Source of the DNA: a virus
Taxonomy: Duplodnaviria; Heunggongvirae; Uroviricota; Caudoviricetes
Strand: one strand, 5' to 3'
IMG/VR virus record: IMGVR_UViG_2711768033_000004
DNA: 22,162 nt
Shown here: in pieces, positions 1-22,162 of the stretch
Numbering within the stretch: position 1 is the first letter of the stretch
Layout: each line of letters opens with the position of its first letter
Made by a program: the position numbers and the translations under genes
The notes under the pieces: model-generated
The model's input: the letters and a program-made list of their open reading frames with translations, nothing else
Database searches by the model: none
Told to the model about the DNA's origin: nothing

Positions 1-284
1 TATTCGGTGAACGCACTATGGCGACGCTGGGGCGTCTTATGAGCCTGCTGTCACCCTTTGACGTGGTGATATGGATGACGGATGGCTGGCCGCTGTATGA
101 ATCCCGCCTGAAGGGAAAGCTGCACGTAATCAGCAAGCGATATACGCAGCGAATTGAGCGGCATAACCTGAATCTGAGGCAGCACCTGGCACGGCTGGGA
201 CGGAAGTCGCTGTCGTTCTCAAAATCGGTGGAGCTGCATGACAAAGTCATCGGGCATTATCTGAACATAAAACACTATCAATAA
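1..284 (+). CDS. insB: IS1 transposase InsB, C-terminal part (5' end outside window)
   Basis: The frame is open from the window edge. Translation [55 protein letters not shown]...IKHYQ is the InsB C-terminus; TAA stop at 282-284. Confidence 0.9.
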
Positions 285-299
285 GTTGGAGTCATTACC
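1..299 (+). mobile_element. IS1 insertion sequence, right-hand 299 bp only (rest lies upstream of the window)
   Basis: The sequence matches the IS1 3' portion as I recall it, ending in the terminal inverted repeat ...AAGTTGGAGTCATTACC at 283-299. It contains the C-terminal InsB reading frame. Confidence 0.92.
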
Positions 300-323
300 A
301 TTGAAGCTGTTGAAAGCTTCTTA

Positions 324-1166: not shown

Positions 1167-1566
1167 TAATATTATCTTCATTGAGACTACCAGAGCCAGG
1201 AGCACACAGATTCTTTTAACTTAGAGCAATGGCATATTAACCATTCCCAGCTATCCATTGATTAGGGCCTTCGTCTGTTGCAGAACACTGGAACTTCCTC
1301 TCCTCGCTCACAGCAGACCTTTGGCCCAGTGAGCTTGTCCGCTCTGTGCCAGAAACGGAAGTTGGGGTGATAGCCTTCAAAATAGCAAATTAAATCGAAG
1401 AGAGAAGAAGGTAATCAATAAATAATACAATAAGTTAGAAACGCTTGAGATTTCTTTTTACTCTTCCAGCACATATACATGCAGTCAGGAGTGGGCTACA
1501 GCGCTCATGCCTAACGGCCAGATAGCACAGGGAAGGCATACAGTGGCACCGTATGCCTATCTGTTA

Positions 1567-2946: not shown

Positions 2947-3450
2947 CCTTGCATGAATTACGTTGTATTTGCATTATGCCAGAACTGGTGAATTATTAAA
3001 CATTTCGCGAGCTGTGCCCCGCTGTTACACAGAACGTTGTTAGCAATGTCCGCAGTTCGCTCAAAGCTACCTTCCAGTTTAACTGGGTATTGGTTGCATT
3101 TTTGTTAGAGATATCCAAGTAAAATGCGAATGGGTAGCCAAGTCAATGCAAATTCCCAAATGGACGACTAAACGCGTTTGAATGCCTGTGTATGTTGTTG
3201 TAGTAACATCCTTTCAACCTAACCGTGCAGGCCTGACAACGTCCGTAACAAGAAGTAGAAATATTGCTCAAAAGGCAAGATAGGCGGGAGCTAAAAGGTA
3301 ACACGTGCTGTTAGCATACCCTTGCATTGAGCCACAAACAATCTCACTGGACTTGCCACAATTTTGCCACACCTACAACGCGCAAAATTGCACATTAGTG
3401 TTAAACAAAGCAAAACACTGCAATAGTAACTTGATGATTTTACGAGAAAA

Positions 3451-3470
3451 GATGGTGCCGATAATAGGAG
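3451..3470. repeat. att-site direct repeat (gatggtgccgataataggag); 18 nt are the complement of the tRNA-Thr 3' end
   Basis: 20/20 identity with 16112-16131. It includes the complement of ...CTCCTATTATCGGCACCA, the acceptor 3' strand plus CCA. Confidence 0.6.
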
Positions 3471-3571
3471 CAAAACATGCACATAACAAACTGAAAAACA
3501 AGAAAATAATAATTTATTTAAAATGATATGCCCCCATACATGCCCCACAATTTAGTTCCATTTACAGCTCT

Positions 3572-3681
3572 GGAAGCATGGGAAGCATGGGAAGCATGGG
3601 AAGCATGGGAAGCATGGGAAGCATGGGAAGCATGGGAAGCATGGGAAGCATGGGAAGCATGGGAAGCATGGGAAGCATGGG
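3572..3681. repeat. perfect tandem repeat, 9-bp unit GGAAGCATG x 12 (plus 2 nt)
   Basis: Counted directly in the sequence: twelve identical consecutive units with no degenerate copies. No stop codon in any frame on either strand. Confidence 0.95.
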
Positions 3682-3951
3682 CGTAGGTGTGGCCAGTTTC
3701 TCAACATCAGGTGTGTAAGCACCACAAGCTGTTCTGGTTAAGCTATAAACAGCTAGCAACTACTCTCAACTGAACCTGAAAGCTCCTTCTCCTGCTTAAC
3801 AGGATCGGATCTTAAGCAAATTTATTAACTTAAGTTTAAGCAATTAAGCCGATTTCAGATCCAGCGAAATCGTATTACTGCCAACGCAAAAACACATCAA
3901 CAATAATAACGTAAGTATTTTGAAACTGACCACAGTTATATTTCTATCAGA

Positions 3952-5970
3952 TTAATAACTTTCTTTCAATTCTTTTTTCTCAATCATCTTTACAAGATCT
4001 AACTCATCCCACTTGACAAACCAATAAGTTTTGAGCATAGATTGCAGATCGCTCTCAATTTCCAAATGGCTTCTATTCACATTTTTCTCATATTTTTTGA
4101 GATATTTTCTGTACAAAAATCGTCTTGTCTCAATTGAAACAAATGGGCAAGACATAACATCCAAGAATAAATGTGCCTTTTCCGATGATTGTAATAAATC
4201 CATATCAGGATATAGCAAATCTTTAATTCTAACCTCAACAATATGTTTAAGTTCTTGATAAGGTTTTCTATTTCTAAAATAGAATAATAATGAGATTATT
4301 GTAAAGTAATCCAATTTCTTTTTATGTATAATACCATTAAAGAAAGAAGTGCTTACAAGATAATTACCCCCAAAAAAAGTAGCAGCTAATATCAAATTAA
4401 CTTTCTCTATGGAAATAAACCCATCAATAAAAAGACCATTGTCATTTTCACCAAAATTGATATTTTCAGCAGTATCTATTAATGTTGTCATAAAAATACT
4501 GCTATAATCACTTGAAAGCATTTTCAAATAATCATTAACGATAACCATTGTTTTTGATAATTTATATGAAGATGACACAGTTGGGTTAACACTGAAGAAA
4601 AACAACATTATATCAGTTACTAAAAATATAATATCTTTAATATTCTTACGTATTTCAACATCACCTTTAATCTTTTCCACCGGAAAGAAATCAATAATTA
4701 ATATTAATCTTTTTGATAATGAAGATATCAGATACGAGGAAATATCCGTGTAAGAAACCTTGTTATCAACACATATAGACTTGATATTATTTATCATATT
4801 CACTTTTAAATCATGCTTGCTTCTAATCTTATTTAGAAAAATGTCACCATCAATCCTTTTATATAATTTACCTTCAAGATTCCGCACTAGTTCGTTAACT
4901 TTAATGATCAATCCTGTCTTGCTAGTGCAGAATGGCCTAGAATATTTTTTAAGTTTATTGATATTTAACTGAAGATTAAAATCATTTAGCTTCACGTTAA
5001 TGGTTTTAGTGATAAGTTCAGCATTTGCTTCATTGTTGCAAAACACTATAAAATCATCCACATACCTTAATATCACATAGTCCTCGTGATTAACCCACCC
5101 GTATTCATCAAAAAGATTTGATTCAATACTACAATCGATACGCTGGAATATTAACTCAGCAAAGACCCGACTAAATTCTGAGCCTATAGGTATACCATTA
5201 GTTTCATTATTATTACTACGTTGCATCAACGTATCTAGTTCCTGACCAAATTGATTGCTATATTTCACATGTTTTCTGATGTAAGGTTTATTTTTTAAAG
5301 CCCATGAAATAGAATGAGTATATATACTATCAAAACAATGTGATACATCTAACATCCACATTATTGAGAATCTTTTCTCAAGATCAAAAAACATTTTACT
5401 TTGAAATAACTTATATATCCTATTAAATCCGCCATAAGAAAAATAAGATGATGAATACTTCCTCATTAATTCATCATTTGTTGTTTCAATATCCTCTCCT
5501 TTATATTTCTCTGAGGCATTATTTTCATATAAGAAGAATGAGTTTGCGACCTTTCGAGGATATCTTATAGAGTAATTACTTTTTGACGCATTTAATGTTA
5601 TAACAGTTGAGTAATTTTTATAAAACTCACAATAATTAAGTTGCGATCTGGGATGAATTAAAGAAAGATATCTTAAACTAAAAGCATCCTTGACAATGCA
5701 ATAGCCAAACGGAAAGCTTTGTTTCTTCTTTTCTTTTTCTCGTTCTTCTATTTTTATAGACAAATCAAAAGCAGGATTAATAATTTTCTTTACGAATGAA
5801 GAAAGGGGAGAGAAATACAAAATCTCCTTATAATGATTTTCAAACTCGGTCAGGTTCAAATACAATCCATCATTTGAAAAGATGATGGGACAGTCACCTG
5901 GTTGCGTATCACATAGTAAAGCCCTGAGGTAATCCTTCTTATCAAGTTTTACATTTTTCTTTATAGCCAT
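3952..5970 (-). CDS. reverse transcriptase with a long C-terminal extension (672 aa); second gene of the RT pair, UG/Abi-type, DRT3-like
   Basis: RT motif A WMLDVSHCFDSI, motif B GIPIGSEFSRVFAELIF, motif C LRYVDDFIVFC. About 350 aa of helical-looking sequence follow motif C. The start overlaps the upstream RT gene by 10 nt. Confidence 0.85.
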   Translation of the reverse strand: MAIKKNVKLDKKDYLRALLCDTQPGDCPIIFSNDGLYLNLTEFENHYKEILYFSPLSSFVKKIINPAFDLSIKIEEREKEKKKQSFPFGYCIVKDAFSLRYLSLIHPRSQLNYCEFYKNYSTVITLNASKSNYSIRYPRKVANSFFLYENNASEKYKGEDIETTNDELMRKYSSSYFSYGGFNRIYKLFQSKMFFDLEKRFSIMWMLDVSHCFDSIYTHSISWALKNKPYIRKHVKYSNQFGQELDTLMQRSNNNETNGIPIGSEFSRVFAELIFQRIDCSIESNLFDEYGWVNHEDYVILRYVDDFIVFCNNEANAELITKTINVKLNDFNLQLNINKLKKYSRPFCTSKTGLIIKVNELVRNLEGKLYKRIDGDIFLNKIRSKHDLKVNMINNIKSICVDNKVSYTDISSYLISSLSKRLILIIDFFPVEKIKGDVEIRKNIKDIIFLVTDIMLFFFSVNPTVSSSYKLSKTMVIVNDYLKMLSSDYSSIFMTTLIDTAENINFGENDNGLFIDGFISIEKVNLILAATFFGGNYLVSTSFFNGIIHKKKLDYFTIISLLFYFRNRKPYQELKHIVEVRIKDLLYPDMDLLQSSEKAHLFLDVMSCPFVSIETRRFLYRKYLKKYEKNVNRSHLEIESDLQSMLKTYWFVKWDELDLVKMIEKKELKESY

Positions 5971-7238
5971 ATTTTTGTGATCTCAGTGTAACGTTTGAAA
6001 TTGTACTTCCTATAAACTCTATCAACAAAACCTTTTCTAAAACTATTGCGCAATAACTCCTTTCTTTGGTTTACAGTGAAGGAATGTTTCGCAATACTAT
6101 GCAAACGTCCGTTGTTCGATTTAACACAATATAATAAAAAATCATCTAATTGCTTTAAGGATATAGAATTTACATCCAATCTTGCATTACTATAATAAAT
6201 TCCAGTACTAACCTTACCTTTCTCTAATGAACTTAATGATCTAATCTTCCTATTTAAATCTCTATTGCTTGTTAAAAAAGAAATTCTATCTAATAACAAT
6301 TTAAAATCACCAGTTCTATGGTAGGAGTAGAAAGCTCTTGCTATTCTAGTTTTAATTTTTTTTATGCGTCCACGAGATAAATCTACAGTTACTTTTCTAT
6401 ATACACTTAAAGTAGCACCTTTGTTACTTAGAGGAGAATCTATTACAGAAAAAGAGTAACCTAAAAAATCAAATTTATGGAGTAATTTATCTTTACCTGC
6501 CGTGCCTTTGCTTCTTTTGTCGATAAGTGGGGACACCTTCAACTTATTTGTATTTAAACTTAATCCCTTGGGTAACAAACTTTGTATTTGTTTCATTAAA
6601 GTCGATGGGCATTCATTTCCACTTGAAATGATCACCATATCATCTACAAAGCGAGAGTAATAAAACACTTCTGAATGCCGATGAATACTACTATCAAATG
6701 CTGCCAAATATAGCTCAGATAACATAGGACTAATCTCCAGTCCTCTTGGCAAACCTTTTGATGAATGGATTCTTTCACAAGCTTTAAGATACCATTCTAT
6801 CAAATTTTTAGTATGTCTGGATAAACGCCGTTCATCTTGCAAATATTGAAAGAGCTGAGGCAAATCGATAGATTCAAAAAAAGATTTTATATCTAAGCGA
6901 TACACTCGGAATTGTGCACCTTCTTTGAGATAAATTTTAAGCTCATCAATTATTTTATTTCTTTGTTTGGGTAGAAGTGACTCCAAACATTTTAAGTTTG
7001 CATTACAATGTCTAAGTATTAGTTTTTCTTTTAAACAAGATGCGTTGTAAACACAACGTCCTTTGATATTTATTTTCTTTACAGTTACTCCAGAACGAAA
7101 ATTTTCGCTGGCAATTAAAACAGCATCACTGATTAATGATTCTAATTTATCCACATTGTTTTTATTAAAATAAAAACTCTTCTCACTTTCACTCAAGTTA
7201 CGCTTAAGTGCTGATGAAGTAAATGGCTGCCGGTTCAT
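5961..7238 (-). CDS. reverse transcriptase (about 425 aa); first gene of the RT pair
   Basis: Motif A YRLDIKSFFESI, motif B GLPRGLEISPMLSELYL, motif C YSRFVDDMVIIS, LGYSF motif. The ORF track extends to 7322 with a non-ATG start, but ATG at 7238 is preceded by GAGGGGGG, so I prefer that start. Confidence 0.85.
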   Translation of the reverse strand: MNRQPFTSSALKRNLSESEKSFYFNKNNVDKLESLISDAVLIASENFRSGVTVKKINIKGRCVYNASCLKEKLILRHCNANLKCLESLLPKQRNKIIDELKIYLKEGAQFRVYRLDIKSFFESIDLPQLFQYLQDERRLSRHTKNLIEWYLKACERIHSSKGLPRGLEISPMLSELYLAAFDSSIHRHSEVFYYSRFVDDMVIISSGNECPSTLMKQIQSLLPKGLSLNTNKLKVSPLIDKRSKGTAGKDKLLHKFDFLGYSFSVIDSPLSNKGATLSVYRKVTVDLSRGRIKKIKTRIARAFYSYHRTGDFKLLLDRISFLTSNRDLNRKIRSLSSLEKGKVSTGIYYSNARLDVNSISLKQLDDFLLYCVKSNNGRLHSIAKHSFTVNQRKELLRNSFRKGFVDRVYRKYNFKRYTEITKIWL

Positions 7239-7637
7239 AACCCCCCTCACAGTACTATCCTTTATGCTTTTATAACTCTTTACATCGTTGCGCGCAATCG
7301 CATCCTCGCTACACTTGACCACTTAATGTAATAGTTTCAGTCACCTGCATGAAATTGTGTAGGCCACGCTGACAAGTTGGCGGCTCGCTGGTCCCCACCG
7401 CATAATATGGGCATCATCCCTAACAATACTGGCGGTTTTAGCGATATGGGAAGATCCAGACTCTTATTTGTTCACATTTAATTGATATCTCTGCAGGTGC
7501 GAAGAAAAGATGATCAACATCGAACCATACGATTTAGGATACCAAAAAGTAGCGAATCTCCCCCAGCAACACTTACATCTATTGAAACTGACTGAGTTTC
7601 GCGAATTGCGCCAGAATTGACCATTTAGCCCTACCAC

Positions 7638-7656
7638 GTGCGCAGCCCCGCCCGCC
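7638..7656. other. cos-like sequence (candidate P2/P4-type cohesive end site)
   Basis: The reverse complement GGCGGGCGGGGCTGCGCAC resembles the P2/P4 cohesive end GGCGAGGCGGGGAAAGCAC as I recall it, and it sits immediately downstream of the Delta-like gene where cos is expected. The match is approximate. Confidence 0.3.
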
Positions 7657-7856
7657 TACCCATTTCGCTTAACAGAATGGTTTTCATGCACCCCGTAAAT
7701 CGTCTCAGGAACCGCAACACAAGGGCTTTCGCGTCAAAATTGGTGCATGGAACTCATGCGTTTTCATGCGCCATAGACATGCACTCATACGTCCTCAAGC
7801 CAGCCAAGAAAAGGCGTAAAAATCCCGGCTCAGGACCGGGAGTATGTAGGGGAGAA

Positions 7857-8129
7857 TCAGACAGGGATTTGTTGGCGGCTGGAAAGCTTGGATGCAGAGC
7901 CATAGCGATTCAGTGTCTGCCCTTTTTTGTCTGTAGCCTCCTCTACTGTCTGCGTATTCTCTTCTTTCTGCGGGCGGGTGATAATGGTATGCACTGATTC
8001 AAGCGCCGTAAAAGTGCTTGAACATTCCAGATTCTGGCACTGGTAGTACGTTTTCTTTACAGAGGGGGCTTCGTACACACTGGCTCGACAATGTGCAATG
8101 GCTGAACAGAAAGGACATTTCAATGCCAT
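7857..8129 (-). CDS. Ogr/Delta-family zinc-finger late transcription activator (90 aa)
   Basis: CPFC...YYQCQNLECSSTF matches the Ogr/Delta Cys4 zinc-finger pattern. GGAGGG lies 8 nt upstream. The start overlaps the upstream gene's stop (TGATG). Confidence 0.8.
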   Translation of the reverse strand: MALKCPFCSAIAHCRASVYEAPSVKKTYYQCQNLECSSTFTALESVHTIITRPQKEENTQTVEEATDKKGQTLNRYGSASKLSSRQQIPV

Positions 8130-8890
8130 CAGATACCCTCCGCAGCTCGGTTACGTTTTTGTAGTTCCTCACGTTCCTGCCGGATCTTCATTTTATGAAG
8201 GGCTGCCGGAGAAGGAATTTTGCGGAAATCAGCAAGAGCTGCATAATCCGGGGCAACTCCCGCCAGTTTAAACACCGGGTCCTGTTCAGGCATCGCATCG
8301 TTAGCCAGAGCCGGTCTGGTGATATGTTTATGAATAAAGTCTTTCAGCACTGTGTCCGGGTCATTAACTGAATTCACCACACCCACAACAGCACTGGCTT
8401 CCCGGCCCATTGTTGATTTAAGCAGGCTCAGCGTCTGAATAAGCGCTTTTCCATGCGACTGCATGAAGTCTTCCCAGATTTGCTTTGCGCGAATTTCCAC
8501 AAGGGTGTTATGTGCGCTGATATACTGCCCGGCTAATTTCCCGGCTTCCTGCGGTAATAATGCATTTTCGCTTTCCTGAGCAGTCAGCAGCTCATCAAAA
8601 TCCTCAAGCGTTTCACGCCCCAGCGCAATTTCCGTACGCAGTTTTTTCATTTCCTTTGAGACTACGCCCTGACTTTCACGAAACAGCGTGCGCCACTCCT
8701 CATTCAGCGCGTTAGTCGTGGCTTCCATTTCAGCGCGGCGCTGGCGGATTGTCGCAATATTATCCGCTGCCGCTTTCTGCTGACGACGTGCTTCAAGCCA
8801 TGCGTTTCTGGCTGTGTTCATGGTTTCCAGTGCCCGCTGCGTTACAGCCGGAAAAGAGGAAAGATTGTTATTCACTGCGGTGTTGTTCAT
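8129..8890 (-). CDS. putative Sid-like capsid size-determination / scaffold protein (253 aa)
   Basis: Long ORF translationally coupled to the Delta-like gene, sitting in the position of P4 sid and of similar size. The product call is positional inference only. Confidence 0.4.
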   Translation of the reverse strand: MNNTAVNNNLSSFPAVTQRALETMNTARNAWLEARRQQKAAADNIATIRQRRAEMEATTNALNEEWRTLFRESQGVVSKEMKKLRTEIALGRETLEDFDELLTAQESENALLPQEAGKLAGQYISAHNTLVEIRAKQIWEDFMQSHGKALIQTLSLLKSTMGREASAVVGVVNSVNDPDTVLKDFIHKHITRPALANDAMPEQDPVFKLAGVAPDYAALADFRKIPSPAALHKMKIRQEREELQKRNRAAEGI

Positions 8891-9068
8891 GACTTCTCCT
8901 GTCGGGTTGATTCGTTACGTAAATTGTGTCGTGGCTGACACAAGCACACTATCGGTGCTCAGTGTATGGTGGCTGGCACAACGCGCGATTGCGGTTATTC
9001 AGACGTGGCTATGAAAGCCAGCCAGATAAAAATGCCCTCTGTTTCAGTCTGCTGTATGTCCCTTATGC

Positions 9069-9256
9069 GGTGGAACAGGTGAAACATGTGTTACTGCTTT
9101 GTTTTGTAAAGCATTTATATGCACTGCACCGGTGGAACATCGCGGGTAACAAGGTGGAACAGCGGATTGGCTGGCGTTACATCTGTTCCACCTCACTATT
9201 TCAGAAGGTGGAACAGGTTCAGCCCTGTAAAATACGGTTGTTCCACCTGTTTCACC
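9069..9256. repeat. iteron cluster: about 8 copies of GGTG(G/A)AACA in both orientations (candidate replication origin, crr-like)
   Basis: Copies at 9069, 9078, 9131, 9153 and 9207 on the + strand, and inverted at 9184, 9239 and 9248, immediately downstream of the primase gene. P4 ori/crr carry comparable TGTTCACC-type iterons bound by the alpha protein. Confidence 0.65.
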
Positions 9257-9290
9257 TGTTACCCTTAATAAATAAGACTCACGCAAAGCC

Positions 9291-11963
9291 TTAACCCGGC
9301 ACCTTGCTGTTGAAGACATAGAGCCTGCGGGGATTCATCTCTGGCGGGCGAATGGTTGTCTGGAGTTTGCCATCAGTGGAGGGGAGCAGGTATCCACGAT
9401 CTGCGCACAGACGCGCCACCTTGCGCGGGTCAAATCCCCTGCAGATTTCTTTCCAGCCGGACGGCATGACATAGAACGTAGTGACAGCTTCCGTGCCCTG
9501 CGCGGTACTGCCTTTCTCCACCCTGCGCCAGCCCACCATATTGCCGGGGCGGTTGCGCTCGTCATACCAGTCTGCAAAGCGGCTGTACTGATTCGCGGTA
9601 AAGAAACTGCGAACCTGCTCCAGTGCGGCAATATCTTCCTGATTGGCGGTGTGCCCGCGATCTTTCAGCCATGCGTTCAGGCAGACGCGGGTTGCCCGCA
9701 GTGCTTCACCCTCAGGCCAGCCGGTGATACCCAGACGGGTTGCCAGTTCACCCGCCATCGCCACCAGTGCAAAGCGATTCACAGCCCGGCCCACCTGATT
9801 GCCTGCATCTTTCGGAGTCAGGGCGGCAGCATATTCCTTCATCAGCGATTTTGCCTGTGCCGTTAGTCCATTAAGATCAGCGGTCAGTACTTTCAGCCAC
9901 TCCCGGAACGGCGAACCGTAGTAGCAGGACGTGGCCCATTCAAGATGCTCTGCCAGAGCCTTGCCGCTGTCGAAGCCGTGCAGTTCCTCAAAAACGCCAA
10001 ATTTCCCGGAATCGCTGGGGATCTGGATCATCCTGACTTCCATCCCGGCAAAAGTACGCTCACCGGCCTTTGCCGCATGTTCGGTCAGAGACAACTCGCC
10101 AGTTGAAAAGAACAACAGGCGCCACTGCTTACGGGTACGCAGCTCACCGTCCGTACCGGCACGGCCCTTGCCCTGACCGTTTGCCAGCATGTAGGCGATA
10201 TTGCCTGCCTCGCGTCCGTCAACTTCCCGGATCTCATCAAGCATCATGGCGGCATCGTTGCGGCGGCTGGCGCATCCCTCCAGCGCGTTGCCGGTGGCCC
10301 GCCATGTCTGCCAGTAGTCAGGCCCGCCGCAGACGGAGGTTGCCGCTTTCATGGTGGTGGTCTTACCGTCTGTCGATTCCCCTTTGAGGTGGTAGCCGCC
10401 GCCGTCCATACCAACCAGCCGTAACAGTGGTGCAGCAAAGGCCAGGCTGACAGCAAATGCCACGCGGGAGTTGCCGGCACAGTAGCGGGATACGTTCTCC
10501 CGCCATTCCTCTGTTGTGCCCGACACGCGGAAATCACGCCCCTGCACGGAAGTGGTCTGGAGAATGACACCCTCTGCACCTTCACCGCTGACCTCATCCT
10601 GCAGGACGTAAACCTGACCATGCCAGCCAGTACGGCTGACGCAGGTCACGCGGCGTTCCGGTTTACACAGTGAGATATATTCCATCAGGCGTGCGCGTGC
10701 CTCGCCGGTGGTGCTGATATAAGACAGCCCGTTAACCAGCAGTACCCGGCGCAGTTCCTCACCACTGCCGCTCAGCATTTCCATCGGCATCGCCCAGCGG
10801 CGACGCTCACCCCACGTATCTTCCCATTCCAGCAGTCGTCCGAAGTTACCGCCATCGGCATCGCAGGTGATTGCCGTCACGCGCAGCGGGCTGCATATTT
10901 TGACGTTCTGGATCTCCGTCTCACCGTTGCGCTGTACCTGCTTTTCATACCAGAGATATTCCTGGGTAAGACGGAACCCGTGCGGCAGTTGCGTGCGGCC
11001 TTCCCCGCACAGTACCAGACCGTTGCGAAAGGCTTCACGGGCACGGGTAATACCGTGCTCCCGATGAAAGTCATTCCAGTCAGCCTTAATCTCTCCTGGT
11101 GGCAGCGTCATCCAGCCGCCAACAGCTTTTGCCGCCCGTTCAGCAAAGGCTCTGCCGGGATTCTCACCCCCGTCCTGAAAATCGTTATCACCGGCGATGA
11201 TAATTTTTACCTCAGGCCAGCGTGCCCGCAGCGACTGCGCCACATTGGGCAGGTTGCCCGCAGATATGGCAGCCACTACGCATCCGGCAGTGAGCTGGCT
11301 TACCGTCAGCGCCGTAGCGTAACCTTCGGTAATCACCACCTGTACCGGTGGTTCAGACGGTAACGGGATGAGCGACACAAACGCGCCTTTCATCGTGCTG
11401 CCGGGCAGTATGCTTTTTTCACCCGTCGGGGCGATAAGCTGTGCACCGGTTACGGCTCCGGTGTTGGTCGTGAGTGGTAACAGCAGGGAACCGGCAGGGA
11501 AATCCTTACCGCTGATATGCTGCACGCTTCCGGTCAGATAGGCCGGGTATCCGGCGAACCCTTTTTCTGTCAGATAGGCGCTTTCTCCCGTGTGGCTCTC
11601 TTTCATCAGCGCCGCCACGGTAAGACCCATGTCGCGTTTAGGGGCTTTTTGTCTGGCAGGCTTAACAGGCAGTTCCTGCACATCCGGCACATTAAGCACC
11701 TGCGCCACCTCCTGCGCAGCCTTTCTGACGCTGTAACCGGTTACGAGCTTAACCAGATCCAGACCATCACCATTGCCACACTGGCTGCAGATCCACGTCC
11801 CGCGCCCGTCAAGGTCATCAAGGCGAAAACGATCCTTGCCCCCACATTTCGGGCAGGGACCGTGCCTGCCGTTTTCAGGTACATCAATACGCAGCATCTG
11901 CAGAATAACGGGCCATTTCCCCCGTGCGGCGGCTGAAATCTGCGTAACCGTCTGTATTGTCAT
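9291..11963 (-). CDS. P4 alpha-like primase-helicase (890 aa): Zn-ribbon, TOPRIM, SF3-type P-loop
   Basis: N-terminal CPKCGG...CSQCGNGDG zinc ribbon; TOPRIM-like IIIAGDNDFQDGGE; Walker A GESTDGKTT. High G+C typical of the P4 backbone. Start overlaps the upstream gene (ATGA). Confidence 0.9.
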   Translation of the reverse strand: MTIQTVTQISAAARGKWPVILQMLRIDVPENGRHGPCPKCGGKDRFRLDDLDGRGTWICSQCGNGDGLDLVKLVTGYSVRKAAQEVAQVLNVPDVQELPVKPARQKAPKRDMGLTVAALMKESHTGESAYLTEKGFAGYPAYLTGSVQHISGKDFPAGSLLLPLTTNTGAVTGAQLIAPTGEKSILPGSTMKGAFVSLIPLPSEPPVQVVITEGYATALTVSQLTAGCVVAAISAGNLPNVAQSLRARWPEVKIIIAGDNDFQDGGENPGRAFAERAAKAVGGWMTLPPGEIKADWNDFHREHGITRAREAFRNGLVLCGEGRTQLPHGFRLTQEYLWYEKQVQRNGETEIQNVKICSPLRVTAITCDADGGNFGRLLEWEDTWGERRRWAMPMEMLSGSGEELRRVLLVNGLSYISTTGEARARLMEYISLCKPERRVTCVSRTGWHGQVYVLQDEVSGEGAEGVILQTTSVQGRDFRVSGTTEEWRENVSRYCAGNSRVAFAVSLAFAAPLLRLVGMDGGGYHLKGESTDGKTTTMKAATSVCGGPDYWQTWRATGNALEGCASRRNDAAMMLDEIREVDGREAGNIAYMLANGQGKGRAGTDGELRTRKQWRLLFFSTGELSLTEHAAKAGERTFAGMEVRMIQIPSDSGKFGVFEELHGFDSGKALAEHLEWATSCYYGSPFREWLKVLTADLNGLTAQAKSLMKEYAAALTPKDAGNQVGRAVNRFALVAMAGELATRLGITGWPEGEALRATRVCLNAWLKDRGHTANQEDIAALEQVRSFFTANQYSRFADWYDERNRPGNMVGWRRVEKGSTAQGTEAVTTFYVMPSGWKEICRGFDPRKVARLCADRGYLLPSTDGKLQTTIRPPEMNPRRLYVFNSKVPG

Positions 11964-12343
11964 ACTTCCCCCTCATACAACGTCACACCGGTACTGCAGA
12001 AGTCATCAAAGGCCGCCGGAAGCGTGCGGTACATCTCCGCCATCACTTCACAGCCGCGCGCGGTCAGTACCGGCGGTGCGGTCAGCAGTGACGGCTCCAG
12101 CATGTCAGTCAGCAGTGCCAGCGCGGCAGCGGCGCCCTGCACTTCGCCGTACTCGTTAATCAGTACGCACTCGATATGCAGCGCAATGGCCATTTCAATA
12201 CGCTCCACCGTCAGGCTGTGCGGACCATACTGATCACTGCCAGTTTCGTTCAGCATTTTCTGCCGCCATGCTGAAGCAATAGCTCGCCGGTAAAGCGCGG
12301 TGGTCATTTCTGCCGGGAAAATGGAAACCTGCGGCTGGTTCAT
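11960..12343 (-). CDS. hypothetical P4-like operon protein (127 aa)
   Basis: ORF in the primase operon with 4-nt overlaps to both neighbours. Confidence 0.55.
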   Translation of the reverse strand: MNQPQVSIFPAEMTTALYRRAIASAWRQKMLNETGSDQYGPHSLTVERIEMAIALHIECVLINEYGEVQGAAAALALLTDMLEPSLLTAPPVLTARGCEVMAEMYRTLPAAFDDFCSTGVTLYEGEV

Positions 12344-12624
12344 CTGGCACCTCCTTCAATCAGTGCGCAACTGTGTGCAATATCCGTCAAATCTGCCCGC
12401 AGGTACTCCATCAGCGCGGCGACACCATGCGCACAGCCAGCGTCCAGTGCTCCGGCCTGAGACGGGTATTCAGAAAAGAGAAGCTGGAGCATGTCGCAGG
12501 CATTTCTTGCGCGGGTCAGCTTTCCGAAACTGTCCTCTGACAACCCATAGGCAAAAGCACCGGTATTGTGTTTTTCAGGCAAAGTGTGGCCCTGAGCACC
12601 GTTGTGCCCGTTTGAAATATTCAT
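12340..12624 (-). CDS. hypothetical P4-like operon protein (94 aa)
   Basis: ORF in the operon; 4-nt overlap with the downstream gene. Confidence 0.55.
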   Translation of the reverse strand: MNISNGHNGAQGHTLPEKHNTGAFAYGLSEDSFGKLTRARNACDMLQLLFSEYPSQAGALDAGCAHGVAALMEYLRADLTDIAHSCALIEGGAR

Positions 12625-12655
12625 CGTGGATTACTCCGTTTTCAGCGGTATTTTG

Positions 12656-13015
12656 TCAGAGAAACTTTGAATAGTGACCGTCGTCAGGCTCAGCAGAACG
12701 CCATATGCTACGCTCCCGCCAGCGGATAAATAGCACAGACGGATGCAGTGTCAGCGGGCCGGAACCACTACCGCCTGCAGGAGCTGGTGCAGGCTTAAAG
12801 AGCGGTACATCAAACAGGCGCGTATACCGCTGTTCAAACCATGCCAGAGGGCAGGAAGAAAGCTGGTTGTCGCTGTCATGACGTATCAGCACTTCACAGC
12901 TGAATTCAGGATTAACCAGCGCCACAGAGGGCGAGGCTTCTATTAATCGGATAATCGTGACCGTCCAGCCACGTTCATGCTGCCAGCGTTCGCCGGGGTG
13001 CGGATAATTACGCAT
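12656..13015 (-). CDS. hypothetical protein (about 119 aa)
   Basis: ORF whose ATG at 13015 overlaps the stop of the upstream small gene (ATGCGTAA). The track's longer N-terminus (to 13045) is probably not used. Confidence 0.5.
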   Translation of the reverse strand: MRNYPHPGERWQHERGWTVTIIRLIEASPSVALVNPEFSCEVLIRHDSDNQLSSCPLAWFEQRYTRLFDVPLFKPAPAPAGGSGSGPLTLHPSVLFIRWRERSIWRSAEPDDGHYSKFL

Positions 13016-13185
13016 GTTCACCTCCGCAGGGAATGCGCCCGGCAAAGCTCAGTACATAGTCCGGGGCAAGTCTGCGCCGCGCTGACCGCTCGTTATCTGC
13101 GGTGATCCTTAACATCACAGGACGGGCATTGCGTTGACTGCGGTTGATCGCCGCAAATAACCAGGTACACTTCTGTTTAGCCATC
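13008..13185 (-). CDS. small protein (58 aa), possibly Icd-like; first gene of the primase operon
   Basis: Not in the ORF track because it is under 60 aa. Translation MAKQKCTWLFAAINRSQRNARPVMLRITADNERSARRRL... with AAGAGGT about 7 nt upstream of the ATG. The Icd-like call is from memory of a similar small family and is uncertain. Confidence 0.45.
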
Positions 13186-13275
13186 TTCGTTACCTCTTAT
13201 AACGGTTGGTTAAATGCCCGATTTGTGTTCCCGCACAATCGGGCATTGCTTTTACAAGCGAACTATACTTACAAT

Positions 13276-13319
13276 GGTAATTACCATGTAGTCATCATAT
13301 TCTAGGGTAATTACCATGT
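13276..13319. promoter_or_regulatory. two copies of GGTAATTACCATGT (perfect 10-bp palindrome GGTAATTACC plus ATGT), 30 bp apart; candidate operator pair
   Basis: Copies at 13276-13289 and 13306-13319. They sit in the divergent region between the primase operon and the RHH gene, and the second copy overlaps the RHH start codon. Confidence 0.5.
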
Positions 13320-13489
13320 CAACACCACAAGAGAAACGTTCTCCACCATTCCAAATGCGTCTTACCGACGATTTTAGGTTGCAACTCGAAAACGAAATGC
13401 GCAAAGATGGAGATAGCGCGTTGGCAACTTGGATTAAAAGAATTTTACGCAAAGAACTCCAATCACGCGGGATTGACCCTAAAGGCTAA
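13316..13489 (+). CDS. small ribbon-helix-helix (Arc/CopG-like) DNA-binding protein (57 aa)
   Basis: Not in the ORF track because it is under 60 aa. Translation MSTPQEKRSPPFQMRLTDDFRLQLENEMRKDGDSALATWIKRILRKELQSRGIDPKG has a strand-helix-helix pattern. Its start lies inside the operator repeat. Confidence 0.45.
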   Translation: MSTPQEKRSPPFQMRLTDDFRLQLENEMRKDGDSALATWIKRILRKELQSRGIDPKG

Positions 13490-13521
13490 TCAGTTAAATA
13501 TTACTAACTATCAATTAAGGC

Positions 13522-13812
13522 TTAGGGAGTAGGTGATAATCTATTCCCTTTATTAATTGCTCTTGCCTTATTTCTCATTCCCTCAAAATGTTGACCTGAG
13601 TTTTCTTCAAACCCATCTCGCCACTTATAATAATCAGCAGCGCGCCATCGTGACATCCGACCTATTTTTATAGGTTTTGGAAAGCGATTCAGAGAAATCA
13701 ATCGATAAATCCATTTATCACTTAATAAACAATCGGAAGTAATAAACTTCATATCGATCAGAGAATCCATTGAAGGTCGTTGCAAAGTAGTATTATCATG
13801 TTTAGATAACAT
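13522..13812 (-). CDS. AlpA-family phage transcriptional regulator / excisionase-like protein (96 aa)
   Basis: KWIYRLISLNRFPKPIKIGRMSRWRAADYYKWRD matches the AlpA pattern (...IYRLI...FPKPIKLG.R...W...EW). GGAG lies 8 nt before the ATG. Confidence 0.7.
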   Translation of the reverse strand: MLSKHDNTTLQRPSMDSLIDMKFITSDCLLSDKWIYRLISLNRFPKPIKIGRMSRWRAADYYKWRDGFEENSGQHFEGMRNKARAINKGNRLSPTP

Positions 13813-13937
13813 TCATCATTCTCCGTTTATCTAAGTCTATTGGCTTCAACACGGAAAATTAAAACATAGGTTATAAATGAGAAAAATGTGACTAATGAAA
13901 AAAATCCAAAATCATTAGCCACAATAATTGTTAATAT

Positions 13938-14762
13938 TTAGTTAAACTTAATGTTTTTCATGCAACTACGTAGCAAACTAACAACAGTATCATAGCTCAA
14001 AGGCGGTTCTCCGGTCTTAGGCCAGAACTCACTGGCATGTTGAAAAAGATAATCAGCTATCGCTGCTGGACTCTCTCTTCTTAGCCTCATATCACGATGA
14101 TAGAGCGAAATAATAGCCATGAGTATTTCAGCTCGAGGAACAGCATGTTTTTGTTTTTGCGCCTCAGATTGTGATTTATATTTATTGGCGTTTTTTATCC
14201 GCTTTTGTTCGCATAAGACTATATCAATGAATTTTTGAATCTGTACCTTTGTAATCCACAAAACCTCAAAAAGATAATAATTTTCTTTTTCATCATAATT
14301 TACATAAAGAATTACCTTACAATTTATATTAGGCGTACCCGCCAGTAGAAAATGAATAGGCCAGGAATCCGGTTGCCCCTCATGCTTAACTAACAGATCT
14401 TTATATTCATAATCAACAGCCCATAAACCGGATATGAAACATCGAATAAAACCATTTTTATCAATTAAATTATCTTCATCAGGGATTCTTATAGAACTTA
14501 AGTCTGACAACATAATATTGCCATTTCTATCTCGTGGTAAATATTTCAGATTAGATAAGAACTCATCCATTTGACCATCAATCTTCAAACCACATGAAAC
14601 ATCATACTCATCATCATGGAATTCCATGCATAGCTCTACATCTCGTTCTCTGGCAAACCAGAGTATATCCTTTTCACTACAACCAATTTTTTCTGAAGCT
14701 TCCTCCAACTGGTAGTAATCTCTGAGCAGAGAATCAGTATTATTAATTTTTAAAATATTCAT
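13938..14762 (-). CDS. hypothetical AT-rich protein (274 aa) with a possible N-terminal HTH, translationally coupled to the integrase
   Basis: Its ATG overlaps the integrase stop (ATGA). The N-terminal segment YQLEEASEKIGCSEKDILWFARE looks HTH-like. The rest has no recognisable motif. Confidence 0.7.
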   Translation of the reverse strand: MNILKINNTDSLLRDYYQLEEASEKIGCSEKDILWFARERDVELCMEFHDDEYDVSCGLKIDGQMDEFLSNLKYLPRDRNGNIMLSDLSSIRIPDEDNLIDKNGFIRCFISGLWAVDYEYKDLLVKHEGQPDSWPIHFLLAGTPNINCKVILYVNYDEKENYYLFEVLWITKVQIQKFIDIVLCEQKRIKNANKYKSQSEAQKQKHAVPRAEILMAIISLYHRDMRLRRESPAAIADYLFQHASEFWPKTGEPPLSYDTVVSLLRSCMKNIKFN

Positions 14763-15949
14763 TTATGAGTACCAATTAGCTCAGATAAATAATTAGCATA
14801 CCATTGCATCATTTCTCTTCTCCCTTCGAGATATTGGGCATGGTTATAAATTCCACGAATAGAGTTTTTGTCCGAATGAGCAAGCTGGGTTTCAATCCAA
14901 GCGCTGTTAAATCCTTTCTCATGTAGGATTGTACTCATCGTATGCCTGAAACCATGCCCCGTAACACGCCCTGCATATCCAATACGTTTAAACACCTGAT
15001 TAATGCTTGCTTCACTCATAAATTTGCTAGGATCGTTGCGTCCAGGGAACATCAGCGGGTAGTTCCCAGTTAGTTCTTTCAAACTTTTGAGATGGGATAA
15101 TGCTTGTTTTGACAACGGGACAATATGGCTCCTACGCATTTTCATACGTTCTTTTGGGATCTCCCACACCGCATTATCAAAATCCACCTCTCGCCACTCA
15201 CCTGCTCGTAGTTCTCCAGTTCGTAGACCTGTCAGGATAAGTAAATGCGCCCCCAACAATACAATTGGACTTCCTGAATAAGAATTAAGGGCATTAAAGA
15301 ACTCCGGTAGTTCGTTGGCTTTGAGGAATGGATAGTGGACTGCTTCATGTCCTTGCATCGCACTGGCAAGATCCGGTGCCGGATTGTAGATTGCCCTACC
15401 CGTTACGATGGCATAGCGAAAAACTTCACCGCATCGCTGACGGACTTTCTTCGCTTTCTCCATAGCGCCTCGAGTTTCTATCAACCTCAGAACTTCAAGC
15501 AGTTCAAGGGGCTGAATATCAGCTATAGGTCTGTGCCCAATATGCGGGAAAATGTCTTTCTCGAATGCCTCAATGATGTCGGAAGCATAGCCCTCAGACC
15601 ATTTGGGTGATTTCATTTTGTGCCACTCTAACGCCACTTCTCTGAATGGGTTAAGTGTCTCAATCGCTGCATTTAAAGCCTGCTTTTTGGCTTTTTTGAC
15701 TTCGCCGGGATCTTCACCTGCTGCGAGTAGTTTCTTCGCGTCTTCTCGTTTTTGTCTGGCATCAGCAAGTGTGACTGTTGGATAAACACCAAAGGACAAT
15801 CGTTTCTCTTTACCAGCAAAACGGTATTTCATACGCCAGTAACGCGAGCCATTAGGTTCGACCTGAAGGTATAGGCCACCTCCATCAAACAGCTTGTAGC
15901 TCTTCTCTTTTCCTTTCGCAGCTTCAACCTTGCGGGCATTCAGCATCAT
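14759..15949 (-). CDS. P4-type tyrosine integrase
   Basis: Begins MMLNARKVEAAKGKEKSYKLFDGGGLYLQV, typical of a P4-family integrase N-terminus, with the catalytic region ...HGFRHT... It lies about 165 bp from the tRNA 3' fragment. The track's longer ORF starts at a TTG (16018); I prefer ATG 15949. Confidence 0.9.
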   Translation of the reverse strand: MMLNARKVEAAKGKEKSYKLFDGGGLYLQVEPNGSRYWRMKYRFAGKEKRLSFGVYPTVTLADARQKREDAKKLLAAGEDPGEVKKAKKQALNAAIETLNPFREVALEWHKMKSPKWSEGYASDIIEAFEKDIFPHIGHRPIADIQPLELLEVLRLIETRGAMEKAKKVRQRCGEVFRYAIVTGRAIYNPAPDLASAMQGHEAVHYPFLKANELPEFFNALNSYSGSPIVLLGAHLLILTGLRTGELRAGEWREVDFDNAVWEIPKERMKMRRSHIVPLSKQALSHLKSLKELTGNYPLMFPGRNDPSKFMSEASINQVFKRIGYAGRVTGHGFRHTMSTILHEKGFNSAWIETQLAHSDKNSIRGIYNHAQYLEGRREMMQWYANYLSELIGTHK

Positions 15950-16113
15950 TGGGGGCACATTTCCTAGACCGAACAGAACATGCCCCTGATTGTGCCCCCA
16001 ACCGCGTGTTGATTTCAAGAGACAAGGGTTGACCTCAAACGTATGAAAACAACGTAATATATATGTTTTTAAATGATTTTGTTGATGTGGGTTGACTTGG
16101 GAAAACTAGGTGA

Positions 16114-16159
16114 TGGTGCCGATAATAGGAGTCGAACCTACGACCTTCGCATTACGAAT
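16114..16159 (-). repeat. partial tRNA-Thr(CGU) (thrW-like) 3' portion, 46 nt from the anticodon loop to CCA; att remnant, not a functional tRNA
   Basis: The reverse complement reads ATTCGTAATGCGAAGGTCGTAGGTTCGACTCCTATTATCGGCACCA: anticodon CGT, T-loop TTCGACT, acceptor 3' strand and CCA. The sequence 5' of this does not match a tRNA, so no cloverleaf can form. Confidence 0.8.
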
Positions 16160-16411
16160 TATAAGAATCCGCTTCTAATTCAAAGCATTACCCCATCAAC
16201 ACTGCGCTCACACGTCCCACCACATCAAAACATGTAAAGCCTTGCAAGCCATTGTGAGGCCTTATGTGTCTCAGTTTTGTCCCACCTTGTATTACGACTT
16301 GCATAGCCAATGAAGATCAACGTGACGACAAACGGCGCAGCAGTCTTCTTTTCCTTCATACTTTCCCTTCCCCTTCCCCACCATGCATACTTTTCTGCCA
16401 TAACTAAAGTG

Positions 16412-16441
16412 AATGCCTGTTATAAGCAATAAACAGGCATT
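16412..16441. other. perfect 10-bp inverted repeat (AATGCCTGTT / AACAGGCATT) with a 10-nt loop
   Basis: Read directly from the sequence. It lies about 110 bp downstream of the 1484-aa gene. No T-tract follows on either strand, so it is not a canonical intrinsic terminator. Confidence 0.4.
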
Positions 16442-16549
16442 AGCGCCGCTAGCATATTAGCTACCATTCGACTGCCACACTTAAGATTGATTTCTTAAGT
16501 ATAACCCGGTTTCTAATACCACTTATATATTCAGCTCTGAGATTCATTT

Positions 16550-19500
16550 TTATCTCGTAAAATTAGTTTTATGACTTCCTGTTAGCTGACTGTCTTCATA
16601 ATAAAATGCCCCACTAAACTCCTGTCGACCATAATGATGACTTGATGTGAGTGAGCCCCCTATAACACCTTTTTCACCTAATAATGTCCAAACGATTTCA
16701 AAACCATTGTCCCTTAACATTGTTAAAAATGGTTCTTTTTTAACAAGTAGATGCGGCTTTGAAGCATATACAGCTTCAGCTGCAAAGCAAACCATAGTTC
16801 CATTTTCATCATTGAAGCTACCCTCTACTTCCCCATTTTTTAAGCCCATCTTTTCAAAGATTAAGTTGCTAGGCTTCAAAAAATTCAAAGCTTCTATTTT
16901 TGATTTGTCGAACTCCTCTCCCCACAAATAATTAATCGAAGTGACACTAACATCAGCTATCTTAGCTCCAGACTCCCGGTCTGTTACCGAAGTCCAGTCA
17001 GAACCACCATAATAATCTGATTTAAAAGACTTAAATGCTTCGGACCAATAGTACTCCCTATTAAATAATTGGTATCTATCAGTACATTCCGGCATCCACC
17101 TGCCCATAAAGTCTTGAGCTATTGCCCAACATCTAAAATTTTCAAATTCTTGAACTTTAACGATATAACTTCTGATCTGATACCAAACCTCTTTTCGTGG
17201 GTGCCCCCAATCATCGTTTCCAATAATTTTTGGTTCTTTCCATGATGGATAACTTTCTAATACTATCCATTCATCACCATTATCATCTTTAACTTCAATC
17301 AAAGCATATGGATTAGTTATAGTAGTAGAGCTTTTAACCCAGTCTTCATTAGAGCAAGTCCAATCAAACACTTCATCATTAAGCCACCACATTTCTTTAT
17401 TGCTTATTTTTTTCGTCCCAGTTTCTTTAAGTAAGATAGTGGGATCTATATCTCTTACGTAAGGCTCCCATGGCCCTTGGTATGGGTTTTCCTTTCGGTC
17501 GTCACCATAACCTTCAAAACGAATAAAATTATCGGCTAGCCTTGCCATGTATTCATAATAAGCAATCCATTGGTATTTTTTACCAATCCGTTCTTGGAAT
17601 TCCTCTCTACGTCCACGTCCAGTTCCTATTTGTTGATCAAAATCACCATGCTTCTCCGGATCCCAACCAAGTTCCAGAACACGATTGAATATAAATTGTT
17701 GAGCTAGTCGAAGATCAAAGTGTTTATCAGTTTCCAGCAGATTATTATTATGATCTAGGTATGGCTCTATTTCATTTTCAAACTCACTTAACAGATCGTA
17801 TGACAATGAATTCTTAAATAGCTTCTTGCTCGCCTTTATTTCTTCCTGTGCTTTTCTACCGACCACGCTACCAAATTTAATTCCTTCACATTTATCATCA
17901 TAAATGAAAGGATCTGTAGCATCATACAATTTTTTTTGTTGGTCAGTTAGTTTACATTTGAAAGTTTTAAAAATTTTCTTACGGTCAATAGGAGTTTCAT
18001 TAAACTTGCAACCAGACCAATCAGAATGATTGTAATTTGTTCCAATGGTATATCGTGAAAAGTCACCACCTCCCATAATCGAGCTCCAGAGTGCCCGATA
18101 AGGTTCTTTATTATAAAGAGACTCTAGTTCCTCTTTTGGAGGAATCTCGTCAGGCCAAATGCTGTTGTAGGGTGGCCTAGTCTTGGATAATTCAATACTT
18201 TCAAGTTCCAGTCCAAGATGATTAGCAAATTCAATAATCTCTCTCGCATAATCTCTAAGTAATATATTTGGATACACAGACTCAGAACAAAATACCTTTT
18301 GGTAAACAGTTTCGGCTAAATATTTTAGTTCTTTAATATTATCAGTTCGCAATGTACAACCCAATGCAACTGCAAATATTCTTTCCCAAACGTAAGGATC
18401 ATTTACACCATAAAACTTATCAATTATTTTTCTCAATACAGGAATTCTTGGCTCGAGTAAACTCACTAAAGCCTTGGTTGAGCAATCTCGAAGTTCTCGG
18501 TTACTAGAAGTTAAAAACCAGCATAAACTAGTTGCAACTAGCTCGATTGACTCATCCGAAACGAAGCTTTTATCTGTTCTGCCCCATGCCCAATCGATTA
18601 GATGCCTAAATGCTGAGTCTTCACTATATTTATATTTAAGTTTTGTAGTCCAACACGAATCTCGATTTCCCAAAGAGTAATCTTTTAGCCAATCATGCAA
18701 GAAATTAGCATTAAAGGGATGGTCAACTAAACCTGAAATAGAGATCACTGCCTCGAGAAAATGATCAAAACTACCTTTAAATTTAAAAACATGTTCATTG
18801 ATGAAAGGTCTGATTTTTTCGAAATCAATAGCCTTAATATCTCGCCATATCAAGCTATCAATAAAGGCTTCTAGTAATTTATGATTATTGCTGAACTCCG
18901 GCAGAAATTCATAAAGCTCTTTTCCATACTTTTCTGGCAATTGAATAGAAAGCGCCTCAACTATTCCCGAGTTTGTATAAAAATCACATTCATCATGAAA
19001 ATATTTTTTCAGACGACCATCTGACTTAAATTCATTTTCGATATTTTCAACATCATTTAATAAAAAATTAACGGTTAAATGATCATCAAACCTTTCAAAA
19101 GCCACATGAACTACTTCCTCAGTAGCATTATCATTATTTCTCACTATGCCTTTAGTCAATAATCCTTCGTCAATCAAGGCGCTGAGGAAATTTTTATCTG
19201 TAACATAATCATTAACTACAGATTGAACCACTGAGTGAGCATCTCTAAGTGAAATACTATTACTACCAATCTCTAATTTGAATTTTATGATTTCGTTGAG
19301 AGCATCTTTTACAAGAGGAAAACTGGGATCGAAATCATATTTTTTTGGCGATGCCAATGATTTATTCACCCCTTCCACTAAAAAGTTAAAAATATTTGAA
19401 ATCCCATTAAACCCAACAGGTACTTTGGTTAAACCATTTTTCTTAATGCCTTCACACAATAACTTAAGAAATAGAGGGTTTTTAAACTCTGGATTAAGAT

Positions 19501-21004: not shown

Positions 21005-21112
21005 GATTAGCTTCTTCCAATAATTAAAATTTTACCAAGCGTTTATGCCTTACAATATGTATTGTATCTCACCGTAAAACATATTTATGTGGTTTTAAAC
21101 CTATCTGTAAAT

Positions 21113-22081: not shown

Positions 22082-22162
22082 GGTAGATCTCCCTGGCAAA
22101 AGCAGGAATGATGCCATTTGCTCGTTATTTCTGCATTTTCATAAACGTTGGTTTGGGAGAAG

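Follow-up and report, generated by a model that had tools for sequence, protein, structure and literature searches.

The window analyzed here is the whole 22,162-nt stretch of the IMG/VR record IMGVR_UViG_2711768033_000004, and all coordinates refer to it. Between two copies of a 20-bp direct repeat, it contains an integrase gene, a row of small, mostly regulatory or hypothetical genes, a primase gene next to an iteron cluster, homologues of sid and delta, a cos-like site and a DRT3 defense system with its non-coding RNA (ncRNA). We read the segment 3451-16131, with high confidence, as an integrated P4-type phage satellite at the Escherichia coli threonine tRNA gene thrW, having an inserted unit of 12,661 bp. 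The window parses into four units: an old thrW-adjacent island (with an IS1-cut Hachiman system and PDC-S15), the 12.7-kb satellite carrying DRT3, a 46-nt remnant of the tRNA gene, and the end of a prophage bearing Avs2.

Attachment sites at thrW

The window contains exactly two copies of the 20-mer GATGGTGCCGATAATAGGAG, one at 3451-3470 and the other at 16112-16131, spaced 12,661 bp apart. None of 100 dinucleotide-preserving shuffles of the window matched it even once. The repeat is exactly 20 bp long, the bases beyond both ends being different in the two copies. On the minus strand, 16114-16159 is identical to the final 46 nt of thrW (tRNA-Thr CGU) as annotated in complete Escherichia coli genomes, including strain WAT, while 16112-16113 correspond to the two bases downstream of the thrW CCA. 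The match to the tRNA ends in the anticodon loop, with the mismatch beginning at 16160, and no intact tRNA was found in the window with ARAGORN and Rfam. The integrase start, mapped to 15949 from the Prokaryotic Genome Annotation Pipeline (PGAP) annotation of a 99.9%-identical copy, lies 165 nt from the 3' end of the tRNA. An earlier note on this DNA had reported the direct repeat, the extension of its right copy into a 46-nt match with the 3' part of tRNA-Thr(CGU) and an integrase start about 165 bp away; all three observations were reproduced.

By the P4 paradigm, a P4-family integrase would have recombined the attP core with the 3' end of thrW. The position of the crossover could be narrowed down in isolate A287, where the host thrW has a compensatory T-stem variant. 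There, attL retains the host base and attR retains the element base, which places the crossover within the 3'-terminal 13 nt of thrW, TTATCGGCACCAT. The direct repeat of A287 has one mismatch owing to this T-stem polymorphism. Two thrW alleles were seen that differ in a compensatory T-stem pair, GGAGG/CCTCT versus GTAGG/CCTAT (L001 16716-16792 versus window 16112-16159). Sister elements have the same terminal core, but with a 1-nt deletion.

Natural states of the locus

A megablast comparison with 5,426 complete E. coli genomes revealed four natural states of the locus. The empty site is represented by strain WAT, which has the order HamA-HamB-FRG gene-thrW(intact)-proA-proB and is 100% identical to window 300-3460, straight into the tRNA. 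WY517-2 contains the prophage only; the same FRG flank is followed by the 46-nt thrW remnant and then by the prophage end. The satellite alone is present in isolate A287, in which window 3452-16159 is found at 99.9% identity, adjoining intact thrW-proA and with an unrelated left flank (a LysR-gene fragment). Both units occur in DETEC-E223, in the order proA-thrW(intact)-int of a lambdoid prophage...tail fiber-Avs2-46-nt remnant-int of the P4-like element...DRT3. The junctions of the compared genomes align with the window to the base.

The repeat might have been incidental to a larger unit, either a composite of prophage and satellite or the satellite together with the Hachiman/FRG flank. Defense genes on both sides (HamB, PDC-S15 and Avs2) and the lack of an intact tRNA in the window would be in keeping with this. 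However, the empty, prophage-only, satellite-only and double states each exist with identical breakpoints, and the Hachiman/FRG flank directly abuts thrW in strains lacking both elements. Four independent locus states with the same breakpoints exclude a composite island. Refuted by these comparative data, the larger unit is extremely improbable. The proposal of the earlier note that the repeats are the limits of the element thus agrees with the thrW locus of genomes lacking it, as well as with the prophage-only and satellite-only states. On this comparison, the 20-bp cores delimit an independently mobile 12.7-kb unit.

The 46-nt piece, in turn, appears to be the distal att remnant of a thrW-inserted prophage that carries Avs2. 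The satellite would then be the second unit of a tandem array, with the old thrW-downstream flank on one side and the 46-nt remnant on the other, and the functional, intact thrW would have to lie past the right end of the window. As for the order of events, the structure fits either an insertion of the satellite into the remnant or a later insertion of the prophage into the restored tRNA. The 46-nt remnant precedes the P4-like int in L002, L003, L004 and L007 as well. Three or more further E. coli genomes have copies of the element with 99.4-99.9% identity and differing flanks; near-identical copies in different chromosomal contexts, together with intact open reading frames (ORFs), argue for recent movement.

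In two IMG/VR contigs (L011 and L012), a different P4-like satellite lies against the same 46-nt thrW remnant and the Avs2/prophage end. The int of this satellite is only ~66% identical at the DNA level. The remnant, or the thrW site beside the prophage, has thus served more than one satellite lineage.

Backbone genes from integrase to primase

The backbone ORFs are all intact (Table 1). The integrase and P4 Int have 43% identity in an alignment of 410 aa. The DUF5375 protein is 40% identical to P4 orf106, and the primase matches the DNA primase family phrog_1139 with E = 2e-182. The N-terminal 316 aa of the primase are 38% identical to P4 alpha, while its C-terminal part (DUF927) is not homologous. 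Ten iteron matches were counted in the window (3.8 expected), eight of them at 9069-9256; they resemble the 'ori type 1 repeat' octamers annotated in NC_001609. The AlpA-like protein scored 20.6 bits with Pfam Phage_AlpA, just under the cut-off of 21, and it matched phrog_66 'excisionase and transcriptional regulator' (E = 1.6e-6) and P4 orf88 (E = 0.002). With homologues of Int, alpha, orf106 and Sid and with Ogr_Delta, DUF5375 and Toprim/DUF927 domains, the content is P4-type, as the earlier note had described it.

Table 1. Features of the element and their positions in the window.
Feature	Position	Strand	Remarks
attR core, left repeat copy	3451..3470		final 18 nt of thrW and the 2 nt after them
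Perfect 9-bp tandem repeat (GGAAGCATG x12)	3572..3681		between attR and DRT3 ncRNA; Tandem Repeats Finder: 12.2 copies, 100% match
DRT3 ncRNA region	3689..3951	-	downstream of drt3b; ends approximate; ACACAC template motif at 3716-3711
drt3b, UG8 class 1 reverse transcriptase, 672 aa	3952..5970	-	NCBIfam and PADLOC
drt3a, UG3 class 2 reverse transcriptase, 425 aa	5961..7238	-	PGAP start from identical copy
cos-like site (GTGCATGAAAACCATT ... GGCGGGCGGGGCTGCGCAC)	7637..7700	-	where the conserved backbone gives way to the variable cargo
Ogr/Delta-type zinc-finger late activator, 90 aa	7857..8129	-	one domain; Pfam Ogr_Delta E = 5e-13, 49.2 bits vs cut-off 26.3
sid homologue, 253 aa	8129..8890	-	only Sid/Psu-family gene of the element; full-length match to P4 Sid
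Two TGT-N12-ACA dyads	8925..8980	-	late-promoter-like putative activator sites, 52 and 90 nt upstream of sid ATG
Iteron cluster, 8 copies of TGTTCCACC/TGTTTCACC	9069..9256		both orientations; ori-like
alpha-like primase/helicase, 890 aa	9291..11963	-	zinc ribbon, Toprim, DUF927 (Pfam)
DUF5375 protein, P4 orf106 homologue	11960..12343	-	Pfam DUF5375 E = 2e-13
94-aa protein	12340..12624	-	position of P4 epsilon/orf151; phrog_14861 (unknown function)
119-aa conserved hypothetical protein	12656..13015	-	phrog_30862 E = 3e-77
Icd-like small protein, 58 aa	13008..13184	-	PGAP: identical L001 gene is 'host cell division inhibitor Icd-like protein'
AlpA-like helix-turn-helix regulator/excisionase, 96 aa	13522..13812	-	position and size fit
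274-aa AT-rich protein (GC ~0.34)	13938..14762	-	overlaps int stop codon; shared by all sister elements
P4-family tyrosine integrase, 396 aa	14759..15949	-	Pfam Arm-DNA-bind_3, Phage_int_M, Phage_integrase
attL	16112..16159	-	right 20-bp core 16112-16131 within 46-nt thrW remnant 16114-16159; ends in anticodon loop

The remaining genes of this segment are less similar to those of P4. The 274-aa gene takes the position of P4 cII without detectable homology, and its product had no match in Pfam, PHROGs, PADLOC, NCBIfam or the PDB sequences. The 119-aa protein is weakly similar to P4 orf151 (E = 0.025). The 94-aa protein had no match to P4 epsilon or to Pfam or NCBIfam models; a non-homologous epsilon analogue at 12340-12624 is possible. 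A divergent small ORF at 13316-13489 was considered as an Arc-like repressor and dropped, having no Pfam support. No P4 CI/C4-type immunity RNA was detected, as Rfam gave no hits at gathering thresholds and a single SymR-like match at E <= 1. This sub-threshold match to the SymR antitoxin RNA lies at 13179-13250 (+); it scored 31.6 bits (E = 0.0098), the gathering score being 61. It faces the 5' end of the Icd-like gene in antisense orientation and might represent either an antisense regulator of the immunity region or a chance match.

Int, AlpA and a primase are also core components of the enterobacterial phage-inducible chromosomal islands (PICIs), and one P4-like element scores as a 'Type C PICI' (PMC10085698). 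Together with the non-homologous DUF927 part of the primase, this would be compatible with a PICI-type island or a generic integrative mobilizable element in place of a P4-type satellite. The Sid homologue, the Ogr/Delta activator, the DUF5375/orf106 homologue, the P4-collinear cos-like site and the P4-like iterons speak against such an assignment. Moreover, Pfam and PHROGs searches found no terminase small subunit or capsid-redirection gene. We therefore regard a PICI or a generic element as very unlikely.

Sid, Delta and the missing psu

The 253-aa protein is 24% identical to P4 Sid over its full length (BLASTP 3e-11) and 90.6% identical to Sid of the sister element L003, and it matches phrog_6165 with E = 7e-93. 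Among the PDB sequences, P4 Sid 7jw1 matches it best, over almost the full length and with E = 4.8e-10, whereas the match to Psu is partial (1e-5). Sid and Psu being paralogous, the Pfam Psu model matches Sid itself, with 32.1 bits against a threshold of 27.4. We considered whether the gene might encode Psu or a fusion of Sid and Psu, but the full-length Sid match, the high identity to the sisters' Sid and the separate Psu of the sisters ruled this out.

In the sisters L003, L004, L006 and L007, the order is sid-psu-delta, and Psu has 183 aa. This Psu has no counterpart in the window, which has 124 bp where the sisters have a 660-bp psu stretch; the lack of a psu-like gene, another point of the earlier note, was thereby upheld. 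The delta-cos segment is ~75-79% identical to the sisters, and the sid-alpha segment 94-99%. A simple deletion of psu fits this pattern less well. A diverged delta-cos segment beside a conserved sid-alpha segment favors a module exchange over a plain deletion, and thus points to a module swap as the probable origin of the psu-less state. The sid-delta junction of the window was found in 4 of the 5,426 complete E. coli genomes, a related sid in ~605. With P4 Delta, the Ogr/Delta-type protein shares 37% identity over the first domain; its identity with the delta of the sisters is only 65.6%. By analogy with the P2/P4 late promoters, the two dyads upstream of sid may serve as activator sites of a late promoter.

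The cos-like site

The similarity of the cos-like region to the cos region of P4 is collinear. In six P4-like viral contigs, the homology breaks off directly past ...GGCGGGCGGGGCTGCGCACG (...GCGCACG), and most of 857 E. coli matches showed a similar breakpoint. In the P2-like Salmonella phage RE-2010, the gpA-portal intergenic region can be aligned with the cos-like region, the two having GTGCATGAAAACCATT and GGCAGGCG(T)GGCGGGG in common. With blastn, the cos-like region found no match among 50,697 phage genomes at E <= 1e-3, and only the weak RE-2010 match at E <= 10. Taken together, the reading of 7637-7700 as a cos site is suggestive.

In RE-2010 (L017, 2960-3090), the cos-aligned sequence is located between gpA/dinI and an AIPR abortive-infection gene, which is followed by the portal gene. 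This stretch illustrates a cos-adjacent hotspot of the phage itself, and hence a match between helper and satellite hotspots.

The DRT3 cargo and the hotspot

Beyond cos, the GC content falls from 0.55 to 0.33. Drt3a scored 361.9 bits with its NCBIfam equivalog (cut-off 200) and E = 1e-130 with PADLOC; the values for Drt3b were 605.7 bits (cut-off 350) and E = 4e-200. The two genes overlap by 10 nt. The open frame of drt3a extends to a GTG at 7322, and the alignment begins at residue 29 of this long ORF. On the coding strand, the ACACAC motif follows the drt3b stop codon (3952-3954) at a distance of ~236-241 nt. When folded, the ncRNA region gives z = -5.95 and places the motif at a hairpin loop; the conservation with a second DRT3 lineage starts at ~3689. 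Both position and motif agree with the ncRNA and ACACAC template published for DRT3 (PMC9226505).

The 9-bp tandem repeat has 18 units in L001 and 11 in L002, elements that are otherwise 99.7-99.9% identical, and no units in the DRT3 lineage of L003. These differences mark it as an apparent fast-evolving variable number tandem repeat directly 3' of the DRT3 ncRNA.

In related psu-bearing backbones, the same slot is occupied by retron St85 and RipA, or by an S8 peptidase and an AAA ATPase. Judged from these exchanges, the slot beyond cos is the swappable defense hotspot of the family, which here holds a complete DRT3 system. The earlier note had expected the reverse transcriptase cargo between cos and int in the circular form. 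The cargo indeed lies between the cos-like site and attR, hence between cos and int in the circle, and the location corresponds to the published P4 hotspot. Three points go beyond that note: the tRNA piece as a truncated leftover of the adjoining prophage, with the tandem array that follows from it; the identity of the cargo as DRT3 with its ncRNA; and a gene order unlike that of P4. A P4 defense hotspot adjoining cos was described by Rousset 2022 (PMC9122126), and UG3+UG8 (DRT3) is among the P4/P2 hotspot cargo of Mestre 2022 (PMC9226505). In published work, DRT3 synthesizes double-stranded poly(dTdG)/poly(dCdA) DNA and defends the host against other phages (bioRxiv 10.64898/2026.05.04.722794).

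Proposed life cycle and mobility

The comparisons with other genomes demonstrate, at the level of sequence, site-specific insertion with exact borders, independence from the neighbors, swapping of cargo in one slot and the assignment of the genes to families. From P4 biology, Int and AlpA would be expected to excise the satellite. With an active P2-like helper, Ogr/Delta-type activators would fire the sid promoter via the two TGT-N12-ACA dyads, and the Toprim/DUF927 primase would replicate the excised circle from the TGTTCCACC iterons. Sid would force the formation of small capsids, and the helper terminase would cut the cos-like site. Following the DRT3 literature, the defense itself would proceed via poly(GT)/poly(AC) DNA synthesis.

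Several observations weigh against the assignment as a P4-type satellite. The window contains no helper phage, and excision, replication and packaging are here predictions from the genes. Among the seven core components of SatelliteFinder, five were found outright or nearly (Int, Alpha, Sid, Delta and a borderline AlpA), and two, Psu and Ash/epsilon, were undetected. The element has neither a psu orthologue nor a second Sid/Psu-family gene, and none of its ORFs matches P4 epsilon or an Ash/epsilon model among the Pfam and NCBIfam profiles searched. The RE-2010 match is weak (E = 8) and was counted only for its position. The P2/P4 cohesive end GGCGAGGCGGGGAAAGCAC has no match with up to three mismatches in the window, and the exact putative 19-nt cohesive end has six matches in IMG/VR, all of them P4-like and none in a P2-like phage contig. 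The predicted attP junction is ...AACTAGGT-GATGGTGCCGATAATAGGAG-CAAAACATG...; a 37-mer across the junction of the circle is absent from the viral and metagenome collections, a result that is uninformative rather than negative. Lastly, the tRNA at attL is now truncated, and this might in principle hinder excision.

These points raise the question of whether we are dealing with a P4-derived cryptic island, one that is no longer mobilizable, has fossil att sites as its borders and is kept by the host solely for DRT3. The missing psu and recognizable epsilon/ash, an attL without the 5' half of the tRNA, the absence of the circular junction from public assemblies and the lack of an exact cos match in P2-like phage contigs all fit this explanation. 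It is less easily reconciled with the intact backbone, with two perfect 20-bp cores and with the recent movement indicated by the nearly identical copies in different flanks. Moreover, psu is dispensable for P4 growth. Psu-less P4-like lineages are treated as probably functional subfamilies (PMC10085698). On balance, the cryptic island is an unlikely explanation, though one to be taken seriously.

A more speculative scenario starts from the P4-type satellite and concerns its rare psu-less, epsilon-less sublineage, which has a delta-cos segment exchanged for that of a divergent lineage and a cos-like site more RE-2010/Fels-2-like than P2-like. This sublineage might have been re-targeted to a different P2-like helper, with Sid alone doing the capsid work, and the 9-bp repeat might act as a copy-number switch on the 3'-end formation of the ncRNA and on DRT3 activity. 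We consider this scenario rather doubtful.

Flanking regions

The left flank (1-3450) is an older, thrW-adjacent defense island. An IS1 end (18-284) cuts hamB, of which only the C-terminal 280 aa remain (324-1166); Hachiman is thus inactivated in the window. An intact FRG-domain gene, the candidate defense gene PDC-S15, is found at 1567-2946. The right flank (16160-22162) belongs to a thrW-integrated prophage, of which it forms the distal end; it contains full-length Avs2 at 16550-21004 (PADLOC 1751 bits), a prophage cargo gene adjoining the att remnant, and a Pin/Hin-type invertase at 21527-22117. Sister genomes have other genes in the position of Avs2 and keep the tail-fiber/invertase module.

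Relation to known elements

As in P4 (NC_001609), a P4-family integrase targets a tRNA 3' end via a ~20-bp core, with the int start ~150-165 nt from the core. The two elements also share a primase with clustered octamer/nonamer iterons, orf106/DUF5375, Sid and a Delta-type activator. A borderline AlpA/orf88-type regulator and a cos-like site adjoining a variable region (non-essential in P4) would add to the resemblance. The target differs, being thrW here and leuX in P4. The genes int...alpha-sid-delta-cos-cargo are co-directional, whereas sid-delta-psu is divergent in P4, and attP lies between cargo and int instead of between int and alpha. Where P4 Delta has two zinc-finger domains, the present one has a single domain. 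Further differences are the lack of psu and of a recognizable epsilon, the DUF927 C-terminal part of alpha and the putative cohesive-end sequence.

Psu-less P4-like satellites are the commonest 'Type B' variant (Type B#var06), and Sid, a structural homologue of Psu, may compensate for the loss (de Sousa et al. 2023, PMC10085698). Like these, our element has a P4-like core set without Psu. Unlike them, it also lacks a detectable Ash/epsilon with the profiles searched, and might score as Type C. In published catalogues, such elements are Type B or C P4-like variants (PMC10085698; NAR 2026, PMC13586616). The cos-adjacent slot, with varied defense systems in near-identical backbones, resembles the P4 hotspot between psu/cos and int (PMC9122126; PMC13586616). 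In the integrated state, however, the hotspot of this family abuts attR, not int. We infer that a search for 'psu, then int within 10 downstream genes' would miss it as written.

The cargo has the organization of EcoDRT3, namely drt3a (UG3), drt3b (UG8) and, after them, a structured ncRNA containing the ACACAC template (Gao et al. 2020; bioRxiv 10.64898/2026.05.04.722794). It differs in the variable 9-bp tandem repeat that follows the ncRNA in this lineage, and antiphage activity is here predicted from the genes. A sister of the element carries retron St85 in the same slot, a feature reminiscent of the retronphage phiR73; the reverse transcriptase system of phiR73 is a retron, not DRT3. The target of phiR73 is selC.

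The satellite class, the tRNA targeting, the cos-adjacent defense hotspot, DRT3 as cargo and the psu-less variant are all already known. Near-identical copies of the element are already present in annotated public genomes, with drt3a and drt3b named by PGAP. The element is an ordinary, well-delimited member of a well-described class, and the significance of the present findings lies mainly in annotation. The locus is a natural example of the tandem stacking of a satellite and a prophage at one tRNA gene, with at least three intact defense systems. The series of alleles (empty, prophage only, satellite only and both) would make it a convenient system for two questions, neither of them new in kind: excision from a truncated tRNA att site and the mobilizability of psu-less satellites.

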